Shown here in pieces: positions 8,496-34,945 of a stretch of DNA of 34,945 nt. The position numbers and the translations under genes are program-made. How positions within the stretch are numbered: position 1 is the first letter of the stretch; each line of letters begins with the position of its first letter. Origin of the DNA: Craspedostauros australis (Eukaryota); assembly GCA_030167865.1 (NCBI GenBank), contig JALAGF010000397.1, forward strand, positions 1-34,945, written 5' to 3'. The notes under the pieces are model-generated. The model had not been told where the DNA came from. It ran no database searches and saw only the letters and a program-made list of their open reading frames with translations.

Positions 8496-10753
8496 CTATA
8501 TTTCTAGTACCCTGAAGTTGCCCTTCATCTCGCTCGCCTCGTCTCCGTTGGGATCGTAATCGCTGTCTTCTGCTGCTGCGGATGATGACGATGCTGTCGC
8601 CTTGATCTTCTCCTTGCGCTTGTTCGCTTTTTCTCGCACCAAGCAGCATTTCTTGTACTGCTGGCCGCTCCCGCATGGGCAGGGGCCTTTCTTCGTCACC
8701 CTCATTTTGACTCTGATCGCACTGCGATCGCCCAGCATGCCGCTGCCCAACTTCGGCCTGCCTTGCGGATTGGCACTGGTTCGACCTCTCGCGAGATCAT
8801 CCGATTGCTTGCATTCTGCGCCGCTATTTGATTGCGTTGGCACTTCGCTGCCGCCCTTCCCGTCGCTCCTTGAATGGAGTGATGTTGATGTTGCTCCCGT
8901 GCCGCTGTAATCGTCACCGGCATCGAAAGCGTCCGTATCGGAAAGGGATTCAGTTCCTGCTTCTTGATCCGTCGCTCCTCCTCCTCCTCCTTCTTGTCGC
9001 TGTGTTTGCTTCTTCATTGTGCTGTCGTCATCTCTTCGTTTACTCGATGCGTCGTTCCGCTTCACGTCCGCCTTGCTCGCCACCGTCGAGGAATGTCCAG
9101 AAGGCGTGGATCCGGACAGGCGCACGCTGTTGTAGTGATCGTTGTCATGAAAGCTCAGCAGCAGGTCCGAACCCTCGGAGTGCTTATGTCCATGATCGAT
9201 AGTGAACGCCGCCATGTTGGCGGAGAATACAGTGATCTTGCGACTGCCGGCACACCACCCAACGAGATTTCACGTACATGCGTTTGTATTCGCATGATGC
9301 GCATAACACGTGGTATAGAGCGTTATAGGAGAGCAAAGTAGAGGAAACCGGATCAAGGTCCGGATAGAATAAATCAGGGTTGTGAGGACGGGTATGCTTG
9401 ACGGGTTGATGGGATGGCTGGATGGAGAACACGATCAGAAGCCCATGACGCAGCACGAATACGAGTGGTTGCATTCAGTTGGGTTGTGACTGGGCTGCGA
9501 TTCTCGATTGAAGCTGCGGTTTAATATCCAAGTCTCCAGGAGATATTCACGATGGCTGACGCAACAATGGCACCAACCGTCACTTCCTATCCAGCACCGG
9601 CAAATTTGATGCACAGCCATATCGCGCCGATCCATACGTCGCTGGATTTGTGAATCCGGAAATGCATGTATTATGATACATGCATGCATACAATTCTCCG
9701 TGTTCTCCACATTCTCACGACGTGATGATCCGCAGTTGGCGTCTGCTCAGGCATTCCATCAGCTCTCTGCATGGCGCTCTCGCCCTTGTCGATAATACAT
9801 GCAAACGCACGTATGGGAGGCATCATGTCAAAATGTTCGTCCACTTGACTCACCCGTACACCCTGGCTGCGGCAACCAATTCGAGATTCCCACCCCACTG
9901 ACCATCCTGCCTCATGCTGTCTATGTAGCTGTCGAAGTCCGACGCATCCTCGTCTTCATCGTCGTCGTCATCCAGCACGAGGAAGAGGCGGAAGTCGTCT
10001 GGATTGTCCTCCATGAAGTCACAGACGTCGTTGCGTACTACGTCGTGCTCATTGCCATGGTCATGGTACAGCTGATCGGAGAGGGCGCGGAACAAGCAGT
10101 TGCCATCCGCGTTCATGTCGATGATCGTCATCTTTCCGTCTGGCATGCCGAAGGTGAGATCCGATACGGGGCAGTGGGTTGTAATGCAATGTTGTCATAT
10201 CGTGTGCGGACACATTGCCATGCAGCACGGAATCCACGTTGTCCATGTTATCCACGTGATGGAACAAAATGCCAGTGGTGATGTGAGGGGAGCATGTGGA
10301 GATGCAGTGATGGATGCAGTGATGGATGGTGAGGTGTGCGGCTGCTGTTGGCATCAATTTTGGTGCATGGTGCTACATGCCTGAAAGACAAACCGCGCAG
10401 TCACCAACAAAAGGCTCGCAAACGAAAATCTCCAAAAAGCTCGAACAATGCAGGATGCTCATGGCACACCACAGCGTCGCCATTGTTTCCGAAGATTAGC
10501 AATGATTGCTCGTACCATCTTCGATCTGATCACGCAGTTGCTGATCCTCTTGCGCTGCGGCGTTGGCGTAGTTCCGATGCTTGTTCGCACCGCTGCGCTG
10601 TCGACGGCGCAACCAACGCTGAGTGCCGCCGCCTTTGCCGGATCCCTCATTGTTCTTGCTGCTTCCGCCTTTGCCGTTGTTGGCATTGCCACTTCTGGAT
10701 CCCTTGCCTCCGCCAGACGATTTGCTGCTCTTCTTCTTCTTGCCCTTCGCCAT
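8496..10753 (-). CDS. OTU-domain deubiquitinase (OTUD3/plant OTU7-like) with C-terminal SEC-C motif; 3 exons: 10753-10516, 10139-9854, 9243-8496 (~423 aa)
   Basis: Catalytic loop ADGNCLFRALSDQL, WGGNLELVAAAR and His loop HDNDHYNSVR; SEC-C motif CPCGSGQQYKKCC. GT-AG introns 10515-10140 (G|GTACG...CCAG) and 9853-9244 (GG|GTGAGT...GCAG) join in frame (1272 nt). The start could be an in-frame ATG at 11071 or 11119. Confidence 0.9.
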
Positions 10754-18045: not shown

Positions 18046-18771
18046 CCAGAGAGTGCAGATGACAGTAGCTTGAAGTATGGTGCGCTGCTACTTCGACCCC
18101 CAGAGGATTCCCGCACTGCAGAACAGATAGGGAACGATGACCTCCAACCCCATGTTCCACTCGTATCTTGTGAGTATGCGTTGTCGGCAAGAACGGCAAC
18201 GGCGGCAGCAATAGCAACAGGAATGTCATGCTCGGAACGACGACAAGCCACGGCCGTCTCTGCCTGAACAGCGATCGCGAAGGGCCAAAGCACAAAATGA
18301 TGTCACCATTGACTCAATGGACTATTGGATTGGAAGCTCATTACCCAATCAGAGGAAATGAGAACATGCCTCAGCGCGGGTCTTTTCGAAAAAGCGTGTG
18401 ACAGCGCGAACATCAACGTTGACACCATCGTGGACGCCTCGAAGGTTGTGGATCATGGAGATGGAGATGGTGAAGATGACAATGATGACACGGAGGCGAA
18501 GGCGGCCGTTCCGTTTGCCACAAACAGACCACAGCGTGTTGTGGTTTGGACCACTCCAGCAGCATCAACCAAACTTACTTGCGATACGAAGATAAAGACA
18601 AGGACAAGCATAAGCATTCCATTCCATTCCATTCGCCCACAAGCTCAAACGGAGACACTTTCATGGAGTACACACCCTGCTCTCCACGCATTGCTCCATA
18701 CGTACATTGCTCCAAGACAGGAAGTCGCCTGCGTCCGTAGCTGCGGTTGCGACCGTAAATGCGATAGAGAG

Positions 18772-20360
18772 ATGTTTTGCAGAATTTTGACGGCGTCGAT
18801 GTCACGAAGAATGGGCTGCGTACGAGTACGACCGTTGCGGCTGGGCAAGGACATTGCGAGCCAAAGAAGATGGATGCATGCGTTGGGAGGATCTAGATCG
18901 CCGATGGCACTCTTGGCTCAGCCGCTGCATGCACCGTCCACGTATGATCAGGGAAGAAGATCAGTTGATCTGCATCGATCTCAGCGATCCAATCTGTACT
19001 CATACTCGTATTCAAGCGGCGTGATATTAGCCAAAACGAAGGATCCAAAGGATGACAATGAGAACTTACACAGCTCGATGCAATCAGAGATCCGTCTCCA
19101 GCACACACAGCATGATGGACAGCAAATACAGAAAATAGATGAGAGAACAAGCGCTGATTCGACGGCTGCTGATGGTGATGGTGAAACATTGGCATCAAGC
19201 GACGAGGTGGCGGAAAACACCACATCCACATTATGGGATCAGCTGCGATCTCCTCCGAACATTATCACGCTCACCCGCATGGCCACCACTCCGCTCCTGG
19301 CCATGTGGGTCATCAACGAGCAACATAGCTTGGCATTGATGGGGTGTCTCGTGGCTGGTGCTTCCGACTACCTCGATGGATACCTTGCGAAGAACCACGG
19401 CATGTCCACTGTCCTGGGATCTTACCTCGATCCCATGGCCGATAAGGTCGTCATCAATGCTTTGGCTATCAGCCTTTGGCACATCGGAACGCTACCCACG
19501 GCTTTGGTGGGGCTGTGGGCCATCAAGGACTTCACCTTGCTGAGCTTCGGCGCGATATATCTCCGCAAGGCGACCGGAAGCATGAACATTTTCCGCAACG
19601 CCACGCTGTCGGAGCCTCTCACCGTGCAACCGAACACAATCGCGAAGATCAACACAGCCTTGCAATTCGCGACGTTGGGAATGGGGATTCTGGAACCGAC
19701 GCTTCTGGGTGGACCGTGGATGATACAGTTCAATCCCGACGCGAATTATTCGGCATTGGAGTGTCTTTGGTACGCAGATTCGTGCGCTTCATCGCCGGCA
19801 TTGGCAGCCAAAGTGGCACGGCCATATCAGCTTGAGTTGTGTGACCTTGACGCACACTGTTGAAGCCAACTGTTGAAGCCAACTGTTGAAGCCAACTGTT
19901 GAAGCAAACTGTTGACGCTCATTGTTGAAGCACACTGTTGAAGCACACTGTTGACGCACACTGGTGACGCACACTGGTGACGCACACTGGTGAAGTTCGT
20001 AAATGGTGTGCAATATCATGCGAATATCAACAGCTACAATTGATCTCACACTCGGCACTTCCCGTTTCACATCCCGATCAATTCTGACGACATGCGACTT
20101 GTTCACTCGGCTCTATTCTCTTCGTATCTCACTCCCTTCCTCACCTGATCCCGTTTCAATCAATCATGCATCCTGATGCAATCATCAGCTGGATGACTGG
20201 AGGCACGAGTGTCGCGACGATCGTTTCGTACATTGGAAGCGCTGGTTTCAGCGAAGTGGCAACGCCGAATTCATTCTCGGCATCCGATGATGGCGATTCG
20301 AAGAAGACGATCACGCCACGCAGCAATACAAGCAAGGGTGTCGATGTGCATCAGAAATAG
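18772..20360 (+). CDS. CRLS1: CDP-alcohol phosphatidyltransferase, most likely mitochondrial cardiolipin synthase (CMP-forming); 2 exons: 18772-19769 and 20189-20360 (~389 aa)
   Basis: PNIITLTR and the signature SDYLDGYLAKNHGMSTVLGSYLDPMADK, then AKINTALQ. The Arg-rich N-terminus from ATG 18772 (MFCRILTASMSRRMGCVRVRPLRLGK) looks like a mitochondrial presequence. Intron 19770-20188 (TG|GTACGC...TCAG|C) restores the last TM segment (CLCWMTGGTSVATIVSYIG). PGP synthase is not excluded. Confidence 0.82.
19847..19995. repeat. Intronic 13-bp minisatellite, ~11.5 units, consensus KTGAMGCMMACTG
   Basis: Contiguous units: ttgacgcacactg, ttgaagccaactg x3, ttgaagcaaactg, ttgacgctcattg, ttgaagcacactg x2, ttgacgcacactg, gtgacgcacactg x2, gtgaag. 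Confidence 0.95.
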
Positions 20361-20519: not shown

Positions 20520-23500
20520 TCAGTCAGGCGAAAAAGGTGGTGTACTGCGGCGGGATGGCGACCTGGTGGCCTCGGAAGGGTGCGAGGGCACAGCTCGGTG
20601 GCCGCACGTGCTGCGCTGGTGGTTGCGCATCCAGTTGGAAAGGACCGGGGAGATAGGTGGTGCCGAGTCGCCAAGACCTGATGTGATGGACTGAATCCAG
20701 AGTATGAGCGGGGAGTGTGGCTGGGCCGCCGGGGGCAGCCTCCAGAGCGCACGCAGGACGGCGGGGACTCGATGCTCCGGGACCTCTTTCAGTAGCTGCA
20801 GCTGCTGGTACAGGAGAGCGGTCATCTCCAGGGAGTGGCCGGATGCTTTGGCCTCGTTGCGGCTACCCCACTGCTCCAGCACGGCGTGCCAAAGGACGTT
20901 GGTGACGCTGACCTGCCAGTCCCGGAGGAGCTTGGGGGCTCGTCGGCGTCGGCTCTGCGGCATGGGGGGCGCGAGGGTGCCCCATTCCGATGCCCATCCA
21001 CCCCACACAATGGCCTCCCACCCCACCTGGTGTTGGCGGAGCTGAAGGGCCTGGGTGGAAGATCGCCTGATGCCCGACGGAGGAAGGCCGCCTGTCGAGA
21101 TCCGTGTGAGCGCCGTGCAGAGGAGCTGGGCGATGTGGGGAGGCGTGGTTGGCGGTCGCACGATTGACCGCACTTTAGCAATGGCCCTGGCCCATATGGC
21201 TTGGCTGTCCTTGCTGCGGCACACCAGGATGTGGCCATTGTCTTCGGCCGCACCACACCTGGGGCACGCATCGGAGACGTCTTGCTGTCGCCGCTGCATA
21301 TTCCTCCCACTGGCGCTGGTGCCGGACATCAGCTTTATCAACGTCCGACGTTTGCCGCCGCTCCATTTCTTTGAAACCACAGTCATGGGTCTCCAGTCGA
21401 CGTCGGAGGGACGTGACGTACCCCATCTGCTGCACCACTTTTGCTGAATGTTATCCCCACGGAGCCGCGAGGAGAGAGTCCAGTACGCCGTGTCAGAGAC
21501 TGGTGCAGCACCGGCTTGGAGGGTCCAACCCTGGGTTTGGGCCGGGCCGCTAATGTGCCGCAGGGTGGTCTGGGCTGATACTTGCTCCCAGTAGTGGCCA
21601 GCAGCGGCGTCAGCGGTGACGTTCATCTCCTCCCACGCCGTGAGTTCCCGGCCTTCGTTGTCGGCGTGGCCCTGCACCTCCTGCTGACTGAACGTCAAGG
21701 GCGATGCTCGCACTTGTCGCACGATTTCGGACCATATGTCAAAGTCATGGCGTTGGGGCTCCGGCCACCGGCTGGCACTTACCGAGCTGAGGGCCCGGTT
21801 GTTGTCGCAGGCAACCGTCACTCGCCCCTGCACTCCCGCCCATTCTGCCACGGAGGTGGTGATCCATACGGACATGAGGACCCCCATGAGCTCAGCTCGG
21901 TTGGAGTCCGTTGGGTGTGAACCGGAGGGCACCGCCATTACGGCGACTATGCGATGGGAGCTGTTGGAGGGAAGGCTCTGCACGACGGTGGCGGCCGTGC
22001 CGATACAGTGCTTAGCGGATGCGTCGCTGCACGCTGCGCACTCGCCCGATACGATGGATCGCACTATCTGATGCACGTCGCCATAGATACGTATCTCTTC
22101 GACCATGTGGGAGGCGGCAGGTCCTTTGGAGCAGAGTATCTCCCGCAGGGTGGTTGGAGGGGAAGGGCTGCGGAAGTCTCCTGATGATATCGTAGTCGAT
22201 ACAGACCTGCGCACCACGCGGTCGACTACCTGCACCGGCATGGTGGTGGAGCGCGGGCGGCCGGCCCTCGTCGTGGTCTGCTGAATAGTGCCGTCCTCCA
22301 TCACTGCCGCGCGTCCTTCCGGGAGGGCCACCCATGGTCCCAGGCGCATGCGAACATGCCACCCTGGCCGATCAGGTGCTGACAAGGCTGATAGGACCGT
22401 TTCCCATGCCTCCCAGGCCGTGCGGGAGACCGAGCCGGTGGCTGGCCACGTGATGCTGCCCGCCGGTAGTCGCTCCCTCCGCAGAATGCTTGGTCGGATC
22501 TTGTCGCCCTTCGCGTTCGCGATGTCGGACATCCACATGGCGCGGAGGTGGATCCTGGCCACGTTGGCAGACGCCAGGGTATTGGGAGGAACTCCTGCTG
22601 CGATGGCCTGGTGCATGATGGCCGCATCACCTTCCCGGGGTGGGGCCCAGTGGTCGCCCAACAGCGTCATGGTGATGCCCAGATCCGAGGCCGACGAGAA
22701 GGTGTGTTGCCACCAGGTGGTGTTGGTCCATTGGCGCCAGATGGCTTCATGCTTCTGGAGGTGCCCAGGCAGGCCGGTCCACAACGTGAGGTGCTGGAAG
22801 GAGGCACGGAGCAGACGGCCGGTGGCTGTGGGTTGCTCGAAATGTCGCATGATTAGGGAGAGGTGGGAGGCGGTCTGCACCACGTGTAAATGCCGAACAC
22901 CCAGGCCCATGAAGCACTTGGGGCCGTGGACATACTCTCTCGCTATGGTGCGAGCTATCCCCATGGCTGGGAGCGCGGCAACGAGAGCCTTGCTCATCAC
23001 TTGGTGCCACTGTTGTCGGGACATGGTTGTGGCTGGCGCCGAGTACTCCAGGGATGGCCACAGGACGGCTGTCATGGCGATCTCCGCATCCTGCTTGCTG
23101 ATTCGTGACGTGCGCACGCTCTCGGACCATGTTTGCGCCTTCTCGACGAGGTAGGAGGTGTGCTCCGTCATACGGCCATCACGACGGGTCATCATCCCTA
23201 GGTATTTCGACGCCGTCCTGGGGCTGACCACTGTCAGGCGAATGCGTTCGCCGGATGGGGAGTTCATGCTGATGCCTTCCCTCGGTTGGCTGATGTGGTA
23301 CGCCCACCTGTGGCGCTTCCACTGGAACCGCACAAGTTGCCAAAAGCTTTTGGTGGGTTCCAGGGCACCTCCCGTCGCGGTCAGCAGATTGTCCCAGCGA
23401 TCCACGGCACGTTGAAATACTTGGGACTGCGTGTCTGGGGAGGCCGGCTCCAAGCTTTGCATTATGTTCGCGTCGTCCACGTACGCCGTCCCTACCAGGG

Positions 23501-26132
23501 TGTGCTCCTCTTGCGTGACCGGGTTCGGCAATCGGAGGCCGTGGCCTTCATGACGCATGCTGTCGAGGATGGCGGAGCTGATGAGAAGCCATCCTGTAGG
23601 TGCAGATCCTAGGCCTTGTACGAGTCCCTGGAGGTAGTTGTGTCGTTGCTTGCCGCTGTACGACGAGCGGGAGGTGCCAGTGGAGGTGCGTATGCGATGG
23701 GTCATTGACTGCAGTGTTCGGAGTGTGCTGGTGATGGGCCCCTTGGGAGCGCCTTGCCTTTGAAGCGCCAAGCTGAACACTGAGTGGGAGATCCTGTCGT
23801 AGCAGCCCTTTGCGTCATTGGAGCAGATGGCGTATGGCTTTCCTGTCAATCTGGCGATGTCATCAATGAGGACCGTGTTGACCAGCACTTCTTGTGCAGT
23901 GTGGGCCCTCCGGCTTCCGAACTGTTCTGCTGCGATGGTGTTGTTGGATTCGGCGTGGGACCGTGCCTGCTTTCCGAGCAGCCGGTTATTCATATTAAAA
24001 TCTCCTTCCATCAGCCCTATTGTTCTGGTCTTGGTCACGGCAAGGTTACCTGGTTTCTTTCGCAGCTGGATGTTGACGCACTGCTGCCATCGTTTGAGAC
24101 TATACCCGGTGCGGTAGGGTATGCTCCGCATGATTGAGTCAATTGCGGCCAGATTTGGCACTGCGGCGTTGGCTTTCCAGCAGCCAAAGTGTATGCCGGA
24201 TGGGCCCGACGACGTGCTTTCCTTGATTTTCGCCCAGCCTGCGGTATGGTCGGCAGGGCTGATGTGGACGTGAGAGGCTGGCCATGGGGTGGCTTCGGTT
24301 GGTTGGCGCAGAGCTTGGAGCATGTCCTTGGTGCTGGACCGAACCTGGGAGGGCACTATCCCGTGCAGGATGGCTGTGGCCCCGGGCCGCGTGCCGAATC
24401 TTCCAAGGAGGCGCTGCAGCGGTGTTTGGCAGACCTCTGCTTGCCACGCCTGGCTGTACTTGTCGACGTTGTTGGCGCAGCAGGCTTGCGCGACTTCTTC
24501 TCCCGAGGTGAGGAGGCCGCCGCTACCGTTGGGGCCGTCATCGATGACTATCGATACCTGAGCGTCGGAGCCGTTGGCGTGGAGGGTCCAGCGAATGCGT
24601 CGGTAGGTCGCTTTGGTCTCCTCGCGTTGAAGGATCTGAGCCCGGTATTTCGCTGAGTCTTTGCCGGCCATTTCGACCTCTGCCTCGTCCGCGGAAAGGA
24701 AGGATCGCCTGTGTTGTTCAGCGTGCCGCTTCTCTTGGTTGTACCGTTTCCATGACTCGTTGCGGCGTTTGTACATTTCGGCCGTCGTCATGTCCTTGGT
24801 GCGTAGGGTAACGCCGCCTTTCTTCTTTGCTTTGTCAGTGGTGCGGCCTTTGATGTGGTGCCCTTTCCGTCGCTTGATGCTGAGCGTCCAGAACCGATGC
24901 TCCCAGTGTAGTTTGGACACCACGGGCGAAAACGGCACGTGACCTGCTCGAATTCTGCGGCACTTGAGCTCAGCATTGATCATGGCGGTGGTTCTGTCTT
25001 TGTCAATTTGTTCGAGGGCACGCATTTGTGCTTGCGTGATGCTGTCGCCGTTGATGCTCTGGTCTAGTAGCTGCGCTCGCTGGAGGAGGTGTAGCTGCTC
25101 TGCTTGTGCTTCGTAAGCATGGATATATCGTCGTACCGTGGACGGCTGATTGAGCTGGAGGCGTCGTCCAGTGAAGGGCGTGGTGGGTTGTTTGGTGGAT
25201 CCAAACAGGCTGTCTGAGTCGATATCCATCCACACTGGCCGATGATCCCAGTCGGCGTAGGGGGCCAGGCCAAGTTGTGTGGGAAGTATGTCCGGCGTGG
25301 CCCATATGGCATCGATGGGTGTGCTGCTGCGGTTGCGGATCATTGTCGCATAGGGTGTATTGATGCGGTCTGTGTGGTGCTCATGGAGCCCATTGGACTG
25401 CATCATGGCTGTGAACTTGGAGTTGCGAACGTCCATGTTGATGTCACCTCCGATGACGATGGTTTCTCCTGACTGCTTCCATGCCGCGATCTGAGTTTGG
25501 AGATCGTGTATGAGCAGGTCAATGGGATCCAGGGTGGACTTCCTTTGGGCGGCCTTCACCGCTTGCTGGTTGTACACTGTGCCTGCGGTCTGTGTGGACT
25601 TCGTGGGCACGTAGACCGAGGCAACTCTGACTTTGATGCCTTGCCGGCCTTGAAGCAGAATGCTGGACCATCTGCCGCACGCTTCGGGGTCGTTGCTACG
25701 CGTGAGCACTCTGCCTGAGATGTTCCCATGCACCAGTACTGCCGTGCCGCCCCATTGGCGAGGAGCTTTGGCGTCGGTTCTGAGGTGTGCCGTACTGGCT
25801 TTGGCTAGCCGCAGGTGCTTCTCAGCTCGTCGTACCAGGGTGGACTCAGTGGGGATTTGGCTCCAGTTTAGGCCGACTTCCGTCATGAGGAGTACGTCTA
25901 TGTCGTGTTGACGTATAGTCTGCCACAGGCTGTCGTTCTTGGGTTCTGAGGGGTGTAGGGGCAGTCCGCCTACGTTGAGGGCCGCGATCCTGACTTGAGT
26001 CGGTGCCTTCTTGTCAGGTCGCTGGCCGAGGTGTTGTTGCTGGGTGTTCGATTCATCCGATCTCGAGCCCCCGGGTATGGTGGGTCCGTTGGTGTCCGGG
26101 CTGGACTGTGCCCGTTCATGGCAGGCTAACAT
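20520..26132 (-). CDS. Retrotransposon ORF2 polyprotein (1870 aa): AP-like endonuclease, reverse transcriptase, RNase H, C-terminal CCHC zinc finger
   Basis: APE motifs LNVGG, MTEVG, GGDIN, IDAIW, WDHRPV. RT motifs RTIGL, EQFGSR, SNDAKGCYDRI, GLVQGLGSAP, YVDD (23472-23483), KYLGM. RNase H motifs ACSDAS, SNRAELMGV, VACDN, VQGHAD, NVTADAAA. Zinc finger CPRCGAAEDNGHILVC. Confidence 0.96.
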   Translation of the reverse strand: MLACHERAQSSPDTNGPTIPGGSRSDESNTQQQHLGQRPDKKAPTQVRIAALNVGGLPLHPSEPKNDSLWQTIRQHDIDVLLMTEVGLNWSQIPTESTLVRRAEKHLRLAKASTAHLRTDAKAPRQWGGTAVLVHGNISGRVLTRSNDPEACGRWSSILLQGRQGIKVRVASVYVPTKSTQTAGTVYNQQAVKAAQRKSTLDPIDLLIHDLQTQIAAWKQSGETIVIGGDINMDVRNSKFTAMMQSNGLHEHHTDRINTPYATMIRNRSSTPIDAIWATPDILPTQLGLAPYADWDHRPVWMDIDSDSLFGSTKQPTTPFTGRRLQLNQPSTVRRYIHAYEAQAEQLHLLQRAQLLDQSINGDSITQAQMRALEQIDKDRTTAMINAELKCRRIRAGHVPFSPVVSKLHWEHRFWTLSIKRRKGHHIKGRTTDKAKKKGGVTLRTKDMTTAEMYKRRNESWKRYNQEKRHAEQHRRSFLSADEAEVEMAGKDSAKYRAQILQREETKATYRRIRWTLHANGSDAQVSIVIDDGPNGSGGLLTSGEEVAQACCANNVDKYSQAWQAEVCQTPLQRLLGRFGTRPGATAILHGIVPSQVRSSTKDMLQALRQPTEATPWPASHVHISPADHTAGWAKIKESTSSGPSGIHFGCWKANAAVPNLAAIDSIMRSIPYRTGYSLKRWQQCVNIQLRKKPGNLAVTKTRTIGLMEGDFNMNNRLLGKQARSHAESNNTIAAEQFGSRRAHTAQEVLVNTVLIDDIARLTGKPYAICSNDAKGCYDRISHSVFSLALQRQGAPKGPITSTLRTLQSMTHRIRTSTGTSRSSYSGKQRHNYLQGLVQGLGSAPTGWLLISSAILDSMRHEGHGLRLPNPVTQEEHTLVGTAYVDDANIMQSLEPASPDTQSQVFQRAVDRWDNLLTATGGALEPTKSFWQLVRFQWKRHRWAYHISQPREGISMNSPSGERIRLTVVSPRTASKYLGMMTRRDGRMTEHTSYLVEKAQTWSESVRTSRISKQDAEIAMTAVLWPSLEYSAPATTMSRQQWHQVMSKALVAALPAMGIARTIAREYVHGPKCFMGLGVRHLHVVQTASHLSLIMRHFEQPTATGRLLRASFQHLTLWTGLPGHLQKHEAIWRQWTNTTWWQHTFSSASDLGITMTLLGDHWAPPREGDAAIMHQAIAAGVPPNTLASANVARIHLRAMWMSDIANAKGDKIRPSILRRERLPAGSITWPATGSVSRTAWEAWETVLSALSAPDRPGWHVRMRLGPWVALPEGRAAVMEDGTIQQTTTRAGRPRSTTMPVQVVDRVVRRSVSTTISSGDFRSPSPPTTLREILCSKGPAASHMVEEIRIYGDVHQIVRSIVSGECAACSDASAKHCIGTAATVVQSLPSNSSHRIVAVMAVPSGSHPTDSNRAELMGVLMSVWITTSVAEWAGVQGRVTVACDNNRALSSVSASRWPEPQRHDFDIWSEIVRQVRASPLTFSQQEVQGHADNEGRELTAWEEMNVTADAAAGHYWEQVSAQTTLRHISGPAQTQGWTLQAGAAPVSDTAYWTLSSRLRGDNIQQKWCSRWGTSRPSDVDWRPMTVVSKKWSGGKRRTLIKLMSGTSASGRNMQRRQQDVSDACPRCGAAEDNGHILVCRSKDSQAIWARAIAKVRSIVRPPTTPPHIAQLLCTALTRISTGGLPPSGIRRSSTQALQLRQHQVGWEAIVWGGWASEWGTLAPPMPQSRRRRAPKLLRDWQVSVTNVLWHAVLEQWGSRNEAKASGHSLEMTALLYQQLQLLKEVPEHRVPAVLRALWRLPPAAQPHSPLILWIQSITSGLGDSAPPISPVLSNWMRNHQRSTCGHRAVPSHPSEATRSPSRRSTPPFSPD

Positions 26133-28741
26133 GTTGGAGGTCCTCCATTGGGCTGCGGAGGGTCGCCATTGGGTTTGCCGAGTTCACGTCGGAGAGCCTG
26201 GACCTGTGCGAGGAGTTGCTGTTCCTTGGTCTGGGGCTGGCCATACCTGGAATCGTTGCCTGTCCTGAGTATGCTGCCTGTGTTGCTGGCGCTAGCGTGA
26301 TTGGCGTTTTGTGTTGTGTCTTCGCTGGGGGAAGCATGCGTCATGCCCAGTGGGGCGATGGTGTAGGCAGAGTCAATGGATCGGTTGGTGGCCACGGTCG
26401 AGTTGGGGTTGAAGATGCTCCTGTTGTCGAGCGCTGCTGGTCGGTGCGCGACTGGCATCACATCCGGTATGTTGGTGATGATGACACTGGCCGGGAACTC
26501 TTCATCGGCGATGTTCTCGAGGTAGTGAGTGTCCGGAGACGTGTAGTCGTTGGTTTCCGGGTCATGCGTGATGTTGAGGCTGGCCACCCATACTTCGGGG
26601 CTGAACCATCTCTCTGCTTTGGGCCCAACTTTGTGTCGTGCTATCGCCGGGAGTAGCCCCATGATGTGTTTTGCTTCCTCCAGGTATTCCGGAAAGGAGT
26701 GAGCCACGATCTGGTCGTCTGTGCCTCGCGCTCTGTCCACGCTGTGAAAGATTTTGTTCCCGGCACTGTCGGTTTCGCGGAGGATGAGCTTTCTGAGCGT
26801 TATGGACTGTCCGTGTTTGCTCTTGACTTTCTTGTCGAGGTGTTGCACTCCGTCGGCGTCCGAGTACTCTATGACAGAGAGGATGGCTTGATGTTTGGCC
26901 ACGATCCCTTCCCTGAACTCTGTCTTCTTGCGTGACATCTGTTCGTATTTCTTGTCTGGCAGAAATCTGAAGTTCATCGCGCCGGGTCTCTCTGTGCGTG
27001 AGTTGAATAGCCGGGCCACTTCTTCCACCGCTGCGTGCGCTTGTGTTCTCTCCACTTCAAGTTTCACCGCTCTCCACGGTTGTACTGACCAGTGGCGCTT
27101 GCCGTCCTTGAACTTGTCTCTGGTCTCGTCACTCACTTGGATGATGTTTTTGAGCTTCCCGCCGACTCGGATATCGCTGTTGAGTCGCCTGAGGCTTCTG
27201 TTGATCACGTCCACTGTGCTGTTGACGTCCGTGAATCCTCCGGAGTACAGTAAAAATCCGATTTCCTTCACCTCTTCTGCGTGTTGGAGTTGTGCTTCGT
27301 AGAGGCCTTCGTGCTCGTTGTAGTAATAGGCGTTGAGCTCTGAATTTCTGTCAGCTGTGATGTCAAAGGGGTTGTCTCTGGTGGTGATTCGGACTTTGGC
27401 GTATGTGATGCCTGTGGCTCCTGACGGTGCGCGTAGGCCGGGGAAGAATGTGCGGAGTTCGTCCATTCTCTCGGGGATTTGGCCTGTGTGCGCGATATGC
27501 GGACCTGTGTTGCCCGATTCTCGCCAAGGGAGGATGACTGCCGACGGGTCGATGCGCCGTACTTGTCTGAACCACCGCTTGATTCTGTCTCGTACCGCTG
27601 CTGTGGTGTCCTCCTCTGTCCTGTCCACGTTGAGTTTGATCGTGAATCTCGTGTCAAATGCGTGTCGTGGGGCCGCGATTTTGGTTTGGGAGGTGTTTGA
27701 CTCATCGTCGGAGCTCACTGACGCATCATCTTGGTTGGTTTTCTCTTTGTTGGCTGTACTGCGTCTGCTTCGGTTCCTTGTTACTCCGGAGTCTGCGGAA
27801 GTGTCCTGGCTCTGGCTGGATTCCGTGGACGTTGAGCCGTCGATGCTTTGTTGGCTGATGTTTCTTGGTTCGGTGGTGCTTTTGGGTGACTTGAATCTGG
27901 TACGCTTGGTGGGTTGGTTGCTGATGTACGAGTCGTCGCTGTCTGTGTCCATGAGTCCAGTGTTCACGCCTGCTGGCATGGTCGCCACTCCTGACCCCAC
28001 GCGATGATCGCCTTCCGCCGTTTCCGTTGTTGGCTTATTGTGTAGGGTGAGGTCCTCCATGCTGTCTCTGTTGATGCTGGGCTCGTCGGTGGGTGATGTG
28101 CCGAGGTCGTAGTTAGATCCCAGAACCCTGTTGGCTGCCTTCCATACTTTGACGGCTCTTGCGCTCTTGACTGTTCCATCGCTGTTGAGGTGGGCTTTGA
28201 ATACGACGTGGGGGTTGGTCGATGCCACGTTTACCACGAATTGGAGCAGTCTCAGTCTGGTTGGGTCCCTGTTTGGAAGGGTGACCGGCCCAAATGCCGT
28301 GACTCTGCCGTCGGCCAGATCGCGGAAGTAGTGCTCCCACTGCTTGATCGTTGGGTTCTCTCTGTCGGCTGTAGCTTCATCCCTGTTGTACCACACGGCT
28401 CTTGCTCTCCATGCTGCTTTCGCCGCGCGGTCGATGGATCCGTCGCCTGTGGCTCTCTCGTACGGGGTGATATCAAGCCCGGTTTTGTTGGCTGCTGTCT
28501 TGAAGGTGCTGGATCTGGGTTTGTATGTCACTGATACGTCTTCTGGGTCGTTCTCCTCCGCTCCTCCGTCGTATGGGATGGCTCTTTTTGCTTGGCGTCG
28601 GGCTCGGTGGTGGTTGCTTGCTTCTATGCTTCCCTGGGTCCCTGCCTTGTCGGGTTCCTTGGTGGGAAGCTTCAAAGTTGGCTCGTCATCTTGCTCCATC
28701 TCTTCGCGTTGGGTCGTGTTGGGTTCGTTGTTCGAAGTCAT
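26126..28741 (-). CDS. Retrotransposon ORF1 protein (871 aa)
   Basis: Uninterrupted ORF between the 5' TSD/UTR and ORF2, overlapping ORF2 by 7 nt. Low-complexity S/T/D linker, then a globular region (IDPSAVILPW...LQ...IGFLLYS). Confidence 0.9.
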   Translation of the reverse strand: MTSNNEPNTTQREEMEQDDEPTLKLPTKEPDKAGTQGSIEASNHHRARRQAKRAIPYDGGAEENDPEDVSVTYKPRSSTFKTAANKTGLDITPYERATGDGSIDRAAKAAWRARAVWYNRDEATADRENPTIKQWEHYFRDLADGRVTAFGPVTLPNRDPTRLRLLQFVVNVASTNPHVVFKAHLNSDGTVKSARAVKVWKAANRVLGSNYDLGTSPTDEPSINRDSMEDLTLHNKPTTETAEGDHRVGSGVATMPAGVNTGLMDTDSDDSYISNQPTKRTRFKSPKSTTEPRNISQQSIDGSTSTESSQSQDTSADSGVTRNRSRRSTANKEKTNQDDASVSSDDESNTSQTKIAAPRHAFDTRFTIKLNVDRTEEDTTAAVRDRIKRWFRQVRRIDPSAVILPWRESGNTGPHIAHTGQIPERMDELRTFFPGLRAPSGATGITYAKVRITTRDNPFDITADRNSELNAYYYNEHEGLYEAQLQHAEEVKEIGFLLYSGGFTDVNSTVDVINRSLRRLNSDIRVGGKLKNIIQVSDETRDKFKDGKRHWSVQPWRAVKLEVERTQAHAAVEEVARLFNSRTERPGAMNFRFLPDKKYEQMSRKKTEFREGIVAKHQAILSVIEYSDADGVQHLDKKVKSKHGQSITLRKLILRETDSAGNKIFHSVDRARGTDDQIVAHSFPEYLEEAKHIMGLLPAIARHKVGPKAERWFSPEVWVASLNITHDPETNDYTSPDTHYLENIADEEFPASVIITNIPDVMPVAHRPAALDNRSIFNPNSTVATNRSIDSAYTIAPLGMTHASPSEDTTQNANHASASNTGSILRTGNDSRYGQPQTKEQQLLAQVQALRRELGKPNGDPPQPNGGPPTC

Positions 28742-30602: not shown

Positions 30603-31292
30603 AGATGGTGACATTGTCGGATTGACATCGTCAGAGATAATACGAATGGTGTGGGCATGGTGTGGTCAGCTATCATCGCGGCATTCCGCTCTGCCCTATT
30701 CTACTTTCACCGAATGCCGTGGAGTGCCAACACGGCAATAGTGTAAATAGTCGCGTTGCTGTTGCCACCCATGCGCCTTGCCATTGTGCAGAGTTGTTGC
30801 GTGCAGCCTTGAGCGTCTCCTCAATAAGGCACTATATGTATGTACACGTGCTGGCGATGGTCGATGGGGATGCCACAAGAAAACCAGCAGTTGCCCATTG
30901 AAATGCTCTACTCTACGGATATCTGCAATATGTGGTGCGATCAATGCTGCATTGCATCCTAAGGACAAGAATTCACTAAAGCTTCTGTATGGTGCTATGT
31001 CGAGTATGTACGAGTGATGGCACTCATGTACGGGCTCTCTCTCTCTCTGTGTACCATAGAGACAGCAACTATCTTGATTGTGTTGGATACGCTAAAGTAC
31101 TTGCATAGTCGTTCACTGGCTTCTTTTCAAAATGATTCAAAATTGGCGGCGTTGCTGAGTGCGGACCCACAACAACCAACAAAGATCGACAAGACCACAG
31201 AAAACAGGAGAGGCAGCCCTCTGTCTCCTCTCCTTGATTTCAAACACATCCATTCTTCCATGAAGCCCAGAGAGCATGTCTCTCCTTGGGTT

Positions 31293-31343
31293 GTGAAGAG
31301 TGCAAAGAGTGCAAAGAGTGCAAAGAGTGTGAAGAGTGTGAAG
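31293..31343. repeat. 9-bp tandem repeat (AAGAGTGCA/AAGAGTGTG) x~5
   Basis: gtgaagagtgcaaagagtgcaaagagtgcaaagagtgtgaagagtgtgaag. Confidence 0.85.
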
Positions 31344-31738
31344 GGTACAAGTAAACCAAGAAGCAAACAAGCAAGGGAGGCAAACAAGCAAACAGGCAAA
31401 CAGGCAAACAGGCAAGGACGCTCCAGACACGATCAGCGCCGTGCCTCTCTCCGTGTCAATTATCTCCACTGCGACTCTGAGTGCGAGTGCGAGTCGTGCT
31501 CCGGTACGGCTGCTGGTGGAGGATCGTGGAAGCATCAGGCGAATCCAAGTGCATTGGATCACAACATTTGTCGAAGGCCGCATCAACGCAGCCCAGCGAG
31601 GATACAACAGCAAGTTGCAACAAACCTGCTCTGCTCTATTATATTCTATATTAGACCACGAGTACAACCACGAGCAGCCAAGGAGGCAGGACCTGAACCC
31701 GCACTTGGGAACGGCGAGGCAGCAGAGATTAGAGCAGC

Positions 31739-34700
31739 ATGAGCGACCTTGACGACTTCCTGAAGCTCACGCTGGATGGAACATCGAGCAATGCGTCCGC
31801 TGCGGCTGCGGGCCTGCAGAGCACGCAGAGACCGACCAAGGCAGGCCTGAACTGGCTCACAGCGACGCCGTCCCAGCGGTCCATGGACCTTCTCTTCGAG
31901 CTGCAGGGTGGCACGGTGCTGCGGTGCCTGCGACTCATGGGAAGCAACGAGGGCGGTCCCTTCGTCGAGCAGACTGCCATGACCTTGCGCCAACCAGCCA
32001 TCAGCCTCACATGCTCGGCGGACGGTCGCATGGTGGCGTTTGCCTGCACGGACGGATCCATCCAGTGCTTCAACGTCACATCGCAGATCTTCAACCACCG
32101 ATGGACGATCAAGGATGCGCACTCTCACGTCACGCCCAGCGCGGCGCTGCCGGCCTCGTCCATCAGAGACGATGCTGCGTCCGCGGCTGGTCCTATCCAC
32201 ACCTTCTCTTTCGTTCCGAGGGACGGCGATTACACCTTGCTCCTTGTGGATTCGGGGACCGGCTCCATCTCGATCTTCGACGCCGCCTTGGCGAAGCCCA
32301 AGGACATGCTGCAGCTGCACAGCGCCAACTTCCCGCTTCCGAAGGCCAAGAGCGCATCCTGGCTCATGCCCAAAGATGGAAGCGGCGCATCAGACACGTT
32401 GGACATCATCATCGGCACTCATTCAGATTCGATACAGGTCTATTCGTACAACATCGACGGAACCTTCAACAAGACCGGCGACGTCCCGGAGCCCAAGATC
32501 GAAGATGATGATTACGGGGAGGAGATCGATATCCCATGGACTTGCGTGCACATGGATTCATCGGATGGTACCGTCGTCCTGGGAATGTGCCGCGTCGTGC
32601 CTGACGAATATGCGGTTGAAGACGATGAGGAGGAAGAGGACGATTCGGCTGAGCACCAAGTCCATCTCTTTGTTGCGGATGTCACATCAGACGGTGCCGC
32701 ACCATCGGTCAGCGCATGGAAGCACCTCGGAGACGTCGTCCCGTTCTTCTCGGTCCCGAAGGGCGGTCGCCATGCCTTCTTCTCATCCTTCACGACAGTC
32801 AATGATCTGCAGCTTATCGCAGTCGCGGCCAACGTCGGTTCGGATATCTCCATCGTCGCTAAATCATCCGCAGGCGGCGATGGCTGGACCTTGGTGGAAT
32901 TCCAGGAGGGTCACCAAGCCACCACACCCACGGACGACGATGACGAATTCTCTTTCCCCGTGGGCTTGTGCCTTGTTCCGCACCACGATGGAAAGCTCAG
33001 GCTCGTTGTCGCATCCACCGACGGAGTGCTGTCCTCCTTCTCCCTCGAGCACGAGGGCAACCCAGCACTGTCTCAACTCGCGTCCGCCGTGGAGACGGCC
33101 CTCCCGGATGAATTCGTTCCCATGAAGGCATTCCAAAAGCCCACCACGCAAACAACTCCTTTCGGTGGTGCGGGCATCGCCACGAAGAGCACGCTCGGGT
33201 TCGGAGCAGCAGGCAGCACCACCACATCGCTGTTTGGCAACTCCGTGACGCCAGCATCCTTCTCCTTCCAGCCATCGTCGTTGACAGCAGGATCGGCGGC
33301 ACCCAAAGACTCCAGCAAAACGTCAACGTCGGGGTTTTCGTTCGGAGCTTCAGGCGGTGCAGCATTCGGTTCACCCTCAGCACTCGGTGGTGGTTCTGCC
33401 TTTGGCAGCGCAACGCCCTTTGGAACTCCGAGCAAGCCCCTTGGACAGACCACGCCCCTCGGTTCGACATTCGGCAGCAGCACGCCATCTGCAACTTTTG
33501 GCTCTGCATCAGCTGGGTCGTCACTTGGATTTGGGGCACTGGCATCCACTTCCGGCGGGAACACAGGATTCGGTGCATTCGCAGCAACACCCAAGAAGGA
33601 AACTATCGACAAACCGCCCGCCACGCCAGCTTCCGACAAACCGAAGCAAGCCACAGAAACCACTTCGTCGTCGGCATTTGGTTCTGGCGACGGCTCCAAC
33701 ATGGTGTTCGGCTCAGGATCGACGCCGCCAACCTTCAACTTCGGGAAGGCGTCCACAACCTCGCTTTTCGGAGCGCTGGGTACCACGAAAACAACTCAGC
33801 AATCGCCCTTCCAATCTGCATTCGGCAACAAGCCGTCGCAGCTGAACCAGGGGATGGTCAAGCCGCTCTTCGGAACCAAGCAACCTGACACACCAAAGGA
33901 CGAACCGAAAACTGTCCAAACGAAATCGACCGAGGTGAACATCCCTCCCAACGCGATTCCCGCCAACAACATCTTCAATGAATTCGACACCGACAAGACT
34001 GGCATCATCCCCATCGACAAGATCGAAGACATGATCGATGCCCTCGGCGAAGGATTCAGTGGCGATGAGTTCGATGAGCAAGTCGCACTCATCGATCCCA
34101 ACAAGACAGGAAATGTCACACGAGATGCCTTCATCTCTTGGTACAGCAAGCTGCTCGATGGTGGCGCCAAGAAGTCCGGCGATGATGACGACGCTGACTC
34201 GTTGGACTCCGATGAAAGAGCCGAACGAGAAGAAGAACGGCAATCCGCTTCTGCAGCATTCACAGAGATGGCAGGATCAGATGGCAAGGTGGGCTTTTCC
34301 GAGTTCCCGAAGCTGTTCAAGGCACTGGGGTCAACGTATGGTGAAGAGGAGTTCCGCAAGCCGATGAAGAAGCTGCGCGGATCTGCATCAGGATCGGACA
34401 GGATCGACAAGGAACCGTTCTTGGATTGGTATGTGAACTGGCTGTTCGCAGGCGATGAATCAGATGACGACGACGACGACGATGATGATGTTACTGGTGG
34501 TGGTGGCGAAGCCCCAGAAACGGCGACAAGTGGAGGCTCTGGCGCTGTGTCGGGCTGGGGCGATACTTTCAAGTTGGACAAGGATAGCTGGAAGTGTGAC
34601 GTATGCTCTGTTCGCAACAGCGGCACAGCAACGGAGTGTGCAGCCTGCGAGACGGTGCGCCCAGGATCTAAGAAGGCGAACAAGGAAAGCAAAGCAAAGG

Positions 34701-34945
34701 AGAGTGGATCATCATCGTCTGGTATTGGTCAAAGTGGTTTCTCCTTTGGCGGTGCGAGTAGTGGTGGAGGCGCGATTGGGTCAGGTGGATTCAGTTTCGG
34801 GGCTCTCTCTGCAACATCCGCAGCTTCATCCAAGGTACCGCCGCCGCCACCACCACCACCCTCATCATCTTTGTTTGGAGGAGGTGGTGGTGCTGGATCG
34901 GCAGGCGATGGCAAGTCGAAGATGTCGTTTGGCTTTGGAAGTGGG
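31739..34945 (+). CDS. FG-repeat nucleoporin, Nup214/Nup159-like (5' part, >1069 aa, runs off the window): N-terminal beta-propeller-like region, FG repeats, EF-hand-like module, RanBP2-type zinc finger
   Basis: Hand translation from ATG 31739 (MSDLDDFLKLTLDG...) stays open to the window end, which is why the ORF track lacks it. Beta-strand/WD-like N-terminus (LTCSADGRMVAFACTDGSIQCF...LRLVVASTDGVLSSF). Many FG/FSFG/SAFG/SLFG repeats from about 33160. EF-like loops DTDKTGII and DPNKTGNV. WKCDVCSVRNSGTATECAACETVRP at 34589-34663. Confidence 0.88.
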   Translation, partial: MSDLDDFLKLTLDGTSSNASAAAAGLQSTQRPTKAGLNWLTATPSQRSMDLLFELQGGTVLRCLRLMGSNEGGPFVEQTAMTLRQPAISLTCSADGRMVAFACTDGSIQCFNVTSQIFNHRWTIKDAHSHVTPSAALPASSIRDDAASAAGPIHTFSFVPRDGDYTLLLVDSGTGSISIFDAALAKPKDMLQLHSANFPLPKAKSASWLMPKDGSGASDTLDIIIGTHSDSIQVYSYNIDGTFNKTGDVPEPKIEDDDYGEEIDIPWTCVHMDSSDGTVVLGMCRVVPDEYAVEDDEEEEDDSAEHQVHLFVADVTSDGAAPSVSAWKHLGDVVPFFSVPKGGRHAFFSSFTTVNDLQLIAVAANVGSDISIVAKSSAGGDGWTLVEFQEGHQATTPTDDDDEFSFPVGLCLVPHHDGKLRLVVASTDGVLSSFSLEHEGNPALSQLASAVETALPDEFVPMKAFQKPTTQTTPFGGAGIATKSTLGFGAAGSTTTSLFGNSVTPASFSFQPSSLTAGSAAPKDSSKTSTSGFSFGASGGAAFGSPSALGGGSAFGSATPFGTPSKPLGQTTPLGSTFGSSTPSATFGSASAGSSLGFGALASTSGGNTGFGAFAATPKKETIDKPPATPASDKPKQATETTSSSAFGSGDGSNMVFGSGSTPPTFNFGKASTTSLFGALGTTKTTQQSPFQSAFGNKPSQLNQGMVKPLFGTKQPDTPKDEPKTVQTKSTEVNIPPNAIPANNIFNEFDTDKTGIIPIDKIEDMIDALGEGFSGDEFDEQVALIDPNKTGNVTRDAFISWYSKLLDGGAKKSGDDDDADSLDSDERAEREEERQSASAAFTEMAGSDGKVGFSEFPKLFKALGSTYGEEEFRKPMKKLRGSASGSDRIDKEPFLDWYVNWLFAGDESDDDDDDDDDVTGGGGEAPETATSGGSGAVSGWGDTFKLDKDSWKCDVCSVRNSGTATECAACETVRPGSKKANKESKAKESGSSSSGIGQSGFSFGGASSGGGAIGSGGFSFGALSATSAASSKVPPPPPPPPSSSLFGGGGGAGSAGDGKSKMSFGFGSG

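Follow-up and report, generated by a model that had tools for sequence, protein, structure and literature searches.

What kind of nuclear-pore protein carries a calmodulin-like domain and a zinc finger between its phenylalanine-glycine (FG) repeats? This question is raised by a gene of Craspedostauros australis on contig JALAGF010000397.1 (NCBI GenBank assembly GCA_030167865.1), of which positions 1 to 34,945 of the forward strand were analysed; this whole stretch of 34,945 nucleotides is called the window below. A first-pass annotation had read positions 31739..34945 as a hybrid FG nucleoporin, in which a propeller-like N-terminus and FG repeats are followed by an EF-hand module, an acidic run, a RanBP2-type finger and more FSFG repeats, and had raised the idea that the EF-hands link Ca2+ to messenger RNA (mRNA) export. 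We conclude that 31739-34945 holds the beginning of a genuine gene for a diatom nuclear-pore protein. The protein is of an ordinary kind, an FG nucleoporin of the Nup214/Nup159 type, and what appears to be new is its conserved and repeated cassette of ~240 residues, which joins four EF-hands to a zinc finger. We consider it likely that the gene encodes the diatom counterpart of the cytoplasmic-filament nucleoporin Nup214/Nup159, equipped with Ran-docking fingers that are each paired to a calcium-independent, calmodulin-like adaptor.

The reading frame and the N-terminal propeller

The gene is a single open frame on the + strand (31739..34945). From its ATG start it runs through 1069 codons with zero stops up to the window end, and its 3' end lies beyond the window, leaving a partial coding sequence. 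Because the N-terminus, MSDLDDFLKL, agrees with the N-termini of relatives, the start codon is well placed. Over its whole length the frame is collinear with relatives, whose match strength reaches an expectation value (E) of 1e-78 for the propeller and up to 2e-87 for the cassette. No support was found for frames on the opposite strand, such as that at 33796-34692 (298 amino acids, aa), as homology was seen on the + frame only.

Residues 1-470 (31739..33148, +) correspond to the propeller, whose strands stop near residue 438. The AlphaFold2 model of residues 1-480, built on an alignment of 17 rows, has a mean per-residue confidence (pLDDT) of 77.9 and a predicted template-modelling score (pTM) of 0.83. 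When this model was compared with the Protein Data Bank (PDB) by Foldseek, ranks 1-6 were all Nup214 (3fhc, 3fmo, 3fmp, 2oit) or Nup159 (1xip, 3rrm) at E 8e-16 to 8e-15, and the next fold was UBR4 at E 5.5e-11. Consistent with this, a profile made from the family alignment matches the N-terminal domain of Nup214 (3fmo, E 1.3e-10; also 2oit, 7tbl and 3fhc), as well as full-length human and Xenopus Nup214 (7r5j_V0 and 7tdz_s), and four relatives (P0003, P0006, P0007 and P0015) score above the cut-off of PF16755, the Pfam family of the seven-bladed NUP159/214 propeller. The N-terminal domain is thus predicted, from its modelled fold, to be a Nup214/Nup159-type beta-propeller.

As in the Nup214/Nup159 nucleoporins, FG motifs occur in low-complexity stretches rich in G/S/T/A/P. 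The first FG-repeat region, at residues 471-732 (33149..33934, +), holds 17 of them and is 67% G/S/T/A/P. The second, at residues 977-1069 (34667..34945, +), is ended by the window end and holds 5 FG motifs, two of them GFSFG, together with a run of eight Pro at 34838-34861.

A four-EF-hand block joined to a RanBP2-type finger

The cassette lies between the two FG regions and begins with a calmodulin/centrin-like block of four EF-hands at residues 733-905 (33935..34453, +). On the first EF pair, the Pfam family EF-hand_6 scores 25.9 bits against a cut-off of 25, and EF-hand_7 falls just under its cut-off of 30 with 29.0 bits; in relative P0002, EF-hand_7 reaches 60.3 bits. The AlphaFold2 model of the cassette (256 residues, alignment of 15 rows; mean pLDDT 73.6, pTM 0.36) shows the EF block as two helix-loop-helix pairs with a short loop-loop beta bridge in each. 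The model helices are 8-20, 30-40, 46-56 and 66-80 in pair 1, and 95-119, 124-133, 140-152 and 162-174 in pair 2. Means of pLDDT over blocks of 10 residues are 82-94 in pair 1 and 66-90 in pair 2, and the linkers between the lobes and after the EF block are disordered in the model.

Foldseek returned 177 PDB matches to the EF block at E<=1e-3, and among the matches listed all entries contain centrin, calmodulin, troponin C or a related EF-hand domain. Centrin-2 is the top fold match (E 5e-6), the E values of calmodulin, troponin C and Cdc31 differ from it by no more than about tenfold, and in the modelled fold no one of these four stands out as the nearest. Both lobes are also aligned by the family profile to troponin C residues 13-157, and we take the spacing of the inter-hand 'LG...E..D.Q' linker to be calmodulin-like. 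In the ESM Atlas, the EF block of relative P0002 was linked to generic EF-hand clusters only, with scores no higher than 0.87, which we treat as leads. On the strength of the model and its fold matches, the four-EF-hand calmodulin-like fold is real.

To bind calcium, EF-hands need oxygen ligands at loop positions 1, 3 and 5 and an acid at position 12. This canonical set is found in none of the four window loops, at residues 750-761, 786-797, 844-855 and 882-893 (33986-34021, 34094-34129, 34268-34303 and 34382-34417, +). The comparison was extended with a cassette profile, which gave 97 full copies from 71 proteins, or 96 distinct rows with the window included. Only 1 of the 96 copies has any loop that fits a relaxed ligand pattern (EF2 of P0014). 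EF1 keeps Asp1 in 81, Gly6 in 71 and Pro9 in 73 of the 96 copies, and EF2 keeps Asp1 in 91, Gly6 in 86 and Pro2 in 77, but each has E or D at position 12 in a single copy: the commonest residues there are K, M, S and R in EF1, and Ala (52) and Ser (24) in EF2. At position 1 of EF3, Asp is absent from all 96 copies and L, I, V, M or F is present in 90; Asp occurs at its position 12 in 34. The EF4 loop is 3 residues shorter than the window's in 92 of the 96 copies, and its columns are approximate when read as Asp at position 1 in 7 copies and at position 12 in 40. In P0024, a protein built of half cassettes (see below), the loop that comes nearest to the canonical form carries Gln at position 12. 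The conserved residues of the EF block are structural, with Phe13 in 96/96 copies of both EF2 and EF4 and the W-Y motifs (34130-34144 and 34418-34447, +) kept. Judged by these loops, the EF block would be calcium-independent, and calcium binding is unlikely.

The linker between EF3 and EF4, of the form G-T-T-Y-C-E-E-E-H, carries Cys in 85/96 copies and His in 84/96, spaced as C-x3-H or C-x4-H. In the window copy Gly and Phe replace this pair at residues 868 and 872 (34340-34354); the same replacement occurs in P0064, which may be the window protein's closest relative. A shared metal site, formed by a His in the column of residue 774 (34058-34060) and the Cys/His pair, was considered and set aside on evidence that was too weak: joint loss of the pair is confined to the window and P0064, a single lineage, and the first His varies freely.

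An acidic linker at residues 906-934 (34454..34540, +) follows the EF block. It is 45% D/E, with a run of nine Asp in it, the acidic run as such being residues 906-917, and it is predicted to be disordered (pLDDT <50). The cassette ends with a RanBP2-type C4 zinc finger and its N-terminal lead-in at residues 935-976 (34541..34666, +), recognised by PF00641 (Zn_ribbon_RanBP) at 35.4 bits against a cut-off of 27 (E 6.3e-9). The finger core reads W951-x-C953-x2-C956-x3-N960-x6-C967-x2-C970 (34589-34648, +), and the lead-in includes GWGDTF at residues 939-944 (34553-34570, +). W951, C953, N960 and C967 are present in 96/96 copies, and C956 and C970 in 95/96.

Against the PDB, the cassette's top sequence match is RanBP2 (7r5j, E 5.7e-22), in eight stretches that all fall on the finger; further top matches are Xenopus Nup358 and the fingers of Nup153 in complex with Ran (3gj7 and others). 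When the query was cut down to the finger and lead-in, each of the 22 best distinct PDB sequences came from Nup358/RanBP2 or Nup153 (E 1.9e-37 to 2.7e-4). Other finger classes gave E values of 4.5e-4 (YAF2), 6e-3 (RYBP), 0.06 (TRABID), 0.1 (HOIP), 0.3 (TAB3), 0.51 (ZRANB2) and 1.1 (TAB2).

How such fingers hold Ran is described in the accessible part of a preprint by Bley et al. (bioRxiv 10.1101/2021.10.26.465790). According to that part, Ran is bound by every NUP358 and NUP153 finger other than ZnF1, and Ran-GDP is preferred; in all the finger-Ran structures a Phe or Leu in an N-terminal extension of ~10 residues fills a hydrophobic pocket of Ran, F1717 being the pocket-buried residue in ZnF7, and removal of the extension abolishes Ran-GTP binding. 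In our alignment W940 pairs with NUP358 F1717, and its column holds W in 77, L in 17 and F in 2 of the 96 copies, so that a Trp would stand here for the Phe or Leu of the Ran-binding fingers. F944 is kept in 91/96 copies, and the C-x-V-x-N core agrees with RanBP2. By these sequence features, the finger ranks with the Ran-binding Nup358/Nup153 class, and most likely it docks Ran at the pore, with Ran-GDP preferred.

The domain order given by the first-pass annotation is therefore borne out, and the Pfam scores and the E values of relatives put it well outside coincidence. Every peptide string that it quoted is found in the translation of the single frame, its propeller-like N-terminus is of the Nup214/Nup159 type according to both Foldseek and the family profile, and the EF module that it placed at about 33960-34450 has its loops at 33986-34417 and, in the model and by Foldseek, the predicted calmodulin-like fold of two helix-loop-helix pairs. 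Its W-x-C-x2-C-x3-N-x6-C-x2-C finger after the acidic run is scored by PF00641 above cut-off and is of the Nup153/Nup358 kind, and the FSFG repeats that it saw after the finger are among the 5 FG motifs there.

Relatives and architecture variants

Residues 1-480 were used in a word-indexed search, which returned 12 proteins at E<=1e-3, led by one from Nitzschia inconspicua (E 1.4e-78, 39% identity). The named propeller relatives come from Nitzschia, Cylindrotheca, Seminavis, Attheya, three Skeletonema and Thalassiosira, and the sole named relative outside the diatoms is one sequence labelled Alexandrium tamarense. With the cassette as query (residues 725-985), 10 proteins of similar length and 9 longer ones were found, the named matches being Amphora coffeaeformis, Cylindrotheca closterium (2996 aa) and Thalassiosira exigua (3196 aa). 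When the 256-residue cassette was compared exhaustively with 1.84 billion representatives, 1284 proteins matched at E<=1e-3, of which 454 did so at E<=1e-10 and 91 at E<=1e-30; this library carries no names, and our statements on lineage cover named relatives only.

Architectures were counted in 166 gathered proteins. The propeller profile matches 52 of them, and 50 of these also have the cassette. Long forms with propeller and cassette span 2000-3343 aa, contain one to four full cassettes and, in all but one, have 28-74 FG motifs; P0023 has four cassettes and Cylindrotheca closterium P0163 has three. The EF block is always N-terminal to the finger, with the acidic disordered run between them. 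The window protein has one cassette before the cut, and a second copy downstream is possible. Relatives listed in eukprot (P0003, P0006, P0014 and P0018, one with an MMETSP id), which we take to be transcript-derived, carry the EF block as well; P0003, P0006 and P0018 have NUP159/214-propeller matches, and P0014 matches our own propeller profile. On sequence evidence, this architecture is the norm of a family whose named members are diatoms, the Alexandrium tamarense label excepted. The earlier description of a lineage-specific hybrid thus holds for the named relatives apart from that label, but the protein is no one-off, its cassette being conserved and present one to four times per protein.

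Downstream of the cassettes, many relatives have repeats of the type F-P-P-M-S-x-K-A-P-T-P-F, none of which lies inside the window. There are up to 13 repeats of the F-P-P-M-S-T-K-A-P-T-P-F type in relatives such as P0005, P0016, P0020, P0042, P0056 and P0164. Binding of these APTPF repeats by the EF block, in the manner of an EH domain, was considered and dropped, as there was no EH match in Pfam or among the fold matches listed.

A cyclophilin domain is found in nine proteins. Six of them (P0016, P0038, P0056, P0062, P0089 and P0164) have a full cassette and no propeller match, and in 4 of these six propeller-less carriers the cyclophilin is N-terminal to the cassettes; a further protein with a cyclophilin, P0136, resembles a RanBP2 of the animal type and has finger matches only. 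A short helical motif, F-Y-x-x-H-N-P-x-K ... K-Y-x-G-K-E, stands before the cyclophilin of P0016 and, as a variant, before that of P0164; it is also present in the propeller-bearing P0017, P0033 and P0068. The cyclophilin-bearing cassette proteins could represent a second, Nup358-like gene or a gene-model effect.

Half cassettes, consisting of one EF pair, the acidic linker and the finger, are repeated three to nine times in P0024, P0026, P0048 and P0058, and in P0048 and P0058 they stand beside a partial Nup214-type propeller match. This arrangement suggests that one EF pair with a finger is the minimal unit. In the far-reaching and rather unlikely reading given below, the unit would predate the diatoms named here, as propeller-bearing proteins of greater divergence have it too. 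The comparison was one of protein sequences, and gene-model errors in metagenome predictions could blur the cyclophilin and half-cassette classes.

Proposed placement at the pore and alternative readings

How does this protein relate to known nucleoporins? With Nup214 and Nup159 it shares the propeller fold, a detectable sequence kinship and the FG repeats that follow. Its order of propeller, FG repeats, inserted structured element and further C-terminal parts resembles that of Nup159, which has a dynein-light-chain-binding segment between its FG repeats and its C-terminal coiled coil. Unlike Nup214/Nup159, which to our knowledge have neither EF-hands nor RanBP2 fingers, the proteins described here carry one to four EF-hand-plus-finger cassettes each; in the cassette and family-profile searches, Nup214 PDB chains were matched through the propeller only, never through an EF-hand or the finger.

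The finger with its hydrophobic lead-in is most like the eight fingers of Nup358/RanBP2 (E 1.9e-37, 8 matched stretches), some cassette-bearing relatives share with RanBP2 the possession of a cyclophilin, and the same pore face is presumed. RanBP2, however, is without propeller and EF-hands, and the 1069 residues of the window protein, whose C-terminus is beyond the window, gave no Pfam match to a RanBD, an N-terminal solenoid or a cyclophilin. Nup153 has the same Ran-binding class of finger with FG repeats after it, but it differs in its N-terminal domain and has its fingers in a bare tandem array, whereas here they are single and each paired with an EF block. The EF block itself has the fold and lobe organisation of centrin/Cdc31, calmodulin and troponin C; unlike these, it is embedded in an FG protein of more than 1000 residues and has lost the calcium ligands from all four loops. 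In this it may be likened to the calcium-insensitive calmodulin-like domains of structural proteins, such as the muscle alpha-actinin isoforms, which are calcium-insensitive; alpha-actinin is matched by sequence at E 7.5e-4.

From these likenesses a mechanism may be proposed. In Nup214/Nup159 the propeller docks the DEAD-box helicase Dbp5/DDX19 and the FG repeats bind transport receptors, both of which are established roles, and 3fhc, 3fmo and 3rrm are among the Foldseek matches. By analogy, the diatom propeller would serve the final step of mRNA export as a dock for Dbp5/DDX19, and transport receptors would be engaged by the FG repeats. Between the FG regions this lineage would have inserted the cassette, at least once here and one to four times in relatives. 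The finger and its lead-in would tether Ran, mainly in the GDP-bound form, to the pore, in the manner of Nup358 and Nup153. The EF domain, its calcium ligands lost, would have become a constitutive protein-binding adaptor or a rigid spacer coupled to each finger; we regard the adaptor role and a purely structural one as about equally probable. Taken together, the protein would equip the cytoplasmic filaments with Ran docks by a route that arose outside animals and independently of them. Pore localisation, pore face, helicase binding, Ran binding, the absence of Ca2+ binding and the adaptor role are what we infer, and the face of the pore would follow, by analogy, from the propeller only.

The two functional links raised by the first-pass annotation fare less well than its architecture. 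Its idea of Ca2+ sensing is not supported by the ligand count given above, and its caution that loops without a position-12 Glu make Ca2+ binding uncertain holds across the family. Nor is a specific tie between the cassette itself and mRNA export supported: the cassette points to Ran, and the propeller only, through the Nup214/Nup159 analogy, points to mRNA export.

A competing placement is that of a Nup153-type nuclear-basket protein, with fingers and FG repeats acting on the nuclear side. Two relatives are indeed named so in databases ('Nucleoporin 153kDa [Seminavis robusta]' and 'Nuclear pore complex protein Nup153' of Cylindrotheca closterium), and Nup153 fingers are among the best finger matches. 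However, the six best structural matches of the N-terminal propeller are Nup214/Nup159, the family profile matches Nup214 by sequence, and the N-terminal part of Nup153 gave no match in the Pfam or PDB searches; we know of no propeller in Nup153. Because the N-terminal domain would be a Nup214/Nup159 propeller, the 'Nup153' names rest on finger and FG repeats, and we hold a basket protein to be quite improbable. Much the same low probability attaches to a functional calcium sensor in the EF block, through which Ca2+ would gate transport or the docking of Ran. The true four-EF-hand fold, the retained Asp1 and Gly6 of EF1 and EF2 and the Asp12 seen in part of the EF3 and EF4 loops speak for such a sensor, but the bidentate acid of position 12 is gone from EF1 and EF2, EF3 begins with a hydrophobic residue in most copies, the EF4 loop is mostly shortened, hardly any loop fits even the relaxed pattern, and the nearly canonical loop of P0024 ends in Gln.

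What the finger binds is less firmly settled, and it is unlikely, though appreciably less so than the two preceding alternatives, that the cassette is no Ran dock and its finger binds ubiquitin, RNA or another protein. The RanBP2-type finger fold binds varied ligands, and YAF2/RYBP fingers match at E 4.5e-4 to 6.6e-3; on the other side, 22/22 of the best distinct PDB sequences are Nup358/Nup153, the ubiquitin- and RNA-binding classes come at E 0.06 to 1.2, and the lead-in is hydrophobic (W, L or F) in 96/96 copies, with a C-x-V-x-N core as in RanBP2. An artefact, in the form of a chimeric or decaying locus or of an EF block that is an open intron, is extremely improbable. The frame is cut by the window and its cassette has lost a Cys/His pair that most copies keep, but 1069 codons are free of stops, homology is full-length and in the same order as in 50 propeller-plus-cassette proteins, eukprot-listed sequences (one with an MMETSP id) have propeller, FG repeats and EF block in one product, and all zinc ligands and core residues are intact.

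A more far-reaching version of Ran docking, which we also consider rather unlikely, would make the cassette a previously unrecognised docking unit of the Ran cycle. The degenerate EF domain would constitutively recruit a factor of the Ran cycle or of export termination, for example RanGAP, RanBP1 or NTF2, beside the Ran-GDP-binding finger, or would mask the W940/F944 lead-in, and diatoms would have built a functional analogue of Nup358 independently, both on a Nup214 scaffold and on a cyclophilin-bearing FG protein. The lead-in stretch has a pLDDT of 31-58, and the single-chain model gives no hint of cis docking on the EF block. NUP358 is called metazoan-specific in the accessible part of the preprint (bioRxiv 10.1101/2021.10.26.465790), and in the accessible part of Neumann et al. 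2010 (PMC2951903) Nup358 is scored only in opisthokont columns, with Nup214 and Nup153 in some chromalveolates. An assembly of Nup358-like parts in diatoms would, because of this distribution, be independent.

Several points count against a Nup214/Nup159 counterpart with calcium-independent adaptors. What is known of the locus comes from its DNA sequence and predicted folds alone. The window's own propeller gave weak Pfam matches, none of them above cut-off, with PF16755 unmatched at E up to 1, and for this reason the propeller assignment rests on the predicted fold and the family profile. Nup214/Nup159 are anchored at the pore by a C-terminal coiled coil that joins Nup88/Nup82 and Nup62/Nsp1; any counterpart here would lie beyond the window, whose last codon, 1069, is within the second FG region, and in relatives the part C-terminal to it is long. 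The EF lobes and the finger have no fixed mutual placement in the model, as its low pTM reflects, the relaxed ligand pattern was applied to the EF loops without a known calcium-binding EF-hand as a positive control, and to these are added the approximate EF4 columns and the two Nup153 names.

In the literature, the nearest links between EF-hands and the pore concern centrin, which is pore-associated through TREX-2 in the part of PMC2726291 that is accessible and is, in the accessible part of a position-specific scoring matrix (PSSM) library paper (PMC10034585), the only case, as centrin-2, for which EF-hands are mentioned. A term search of the main text of PMC2951903, as far as it is accessible, found neither 'zinc finger' nor 'EF-hand'. 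Our literature search, whose coverage left most subscription journals outside, turned up no paper on a nucleoporin with EF-hands and none on this diatom family. The combination is common to many diatoms and apparently not yet described.

Elsewhere in the window, a frame of 1870 aa at 20520-26132 (-) matches an Exo_endo_phos endonuclease and an RVT_1 reverse transcriptase and is for this reason read as a retroelement resembling a long interspersed nuclear element; the G+C content of the window peaks there (0.63 at 21-23 kb). An adjoining frame of 871 aa at 26126-28741 (-) has no Pfam match. A CDP-alcohol phosphatidyltransferase domain (81 bits) is found in a 501-aa frame at 18358-19863 (+), and a SEC-C motif (24.9 bits against a cut-off of 20.4) in a 239-aa frame at 8496-9215 (-). 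Just upstream of the nucleoporin gene lies a short tandem 'caaacagg' run (31380-31410), overlapped by a 241-aa frame at 31017-31742 (+) that has K-S-A-K-S-A repeats and no Pfam match and is probably non-coding.

Beyond animals, fungi, plants and trypanosomes, the composition of the nuclear pore is mostly known from homology lists, and the cytoplasmic filaments and the basket are its least conserved parts. If the reading of a Nup214/Nup159 counterpart is right, a major algal lineage would have its Ran-binding fingers on a Nup214-type protein, a job done in animals by Nup358, and every finger would be coupled to a calcium-blind, calmodulin-like domain that is absent from described nucleoporins. 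The finding corrects the 'Nup153' labels on relatives, and it offers an entry into the handling of Ran at the diatom pore, with a compact cassette for biochemistry.

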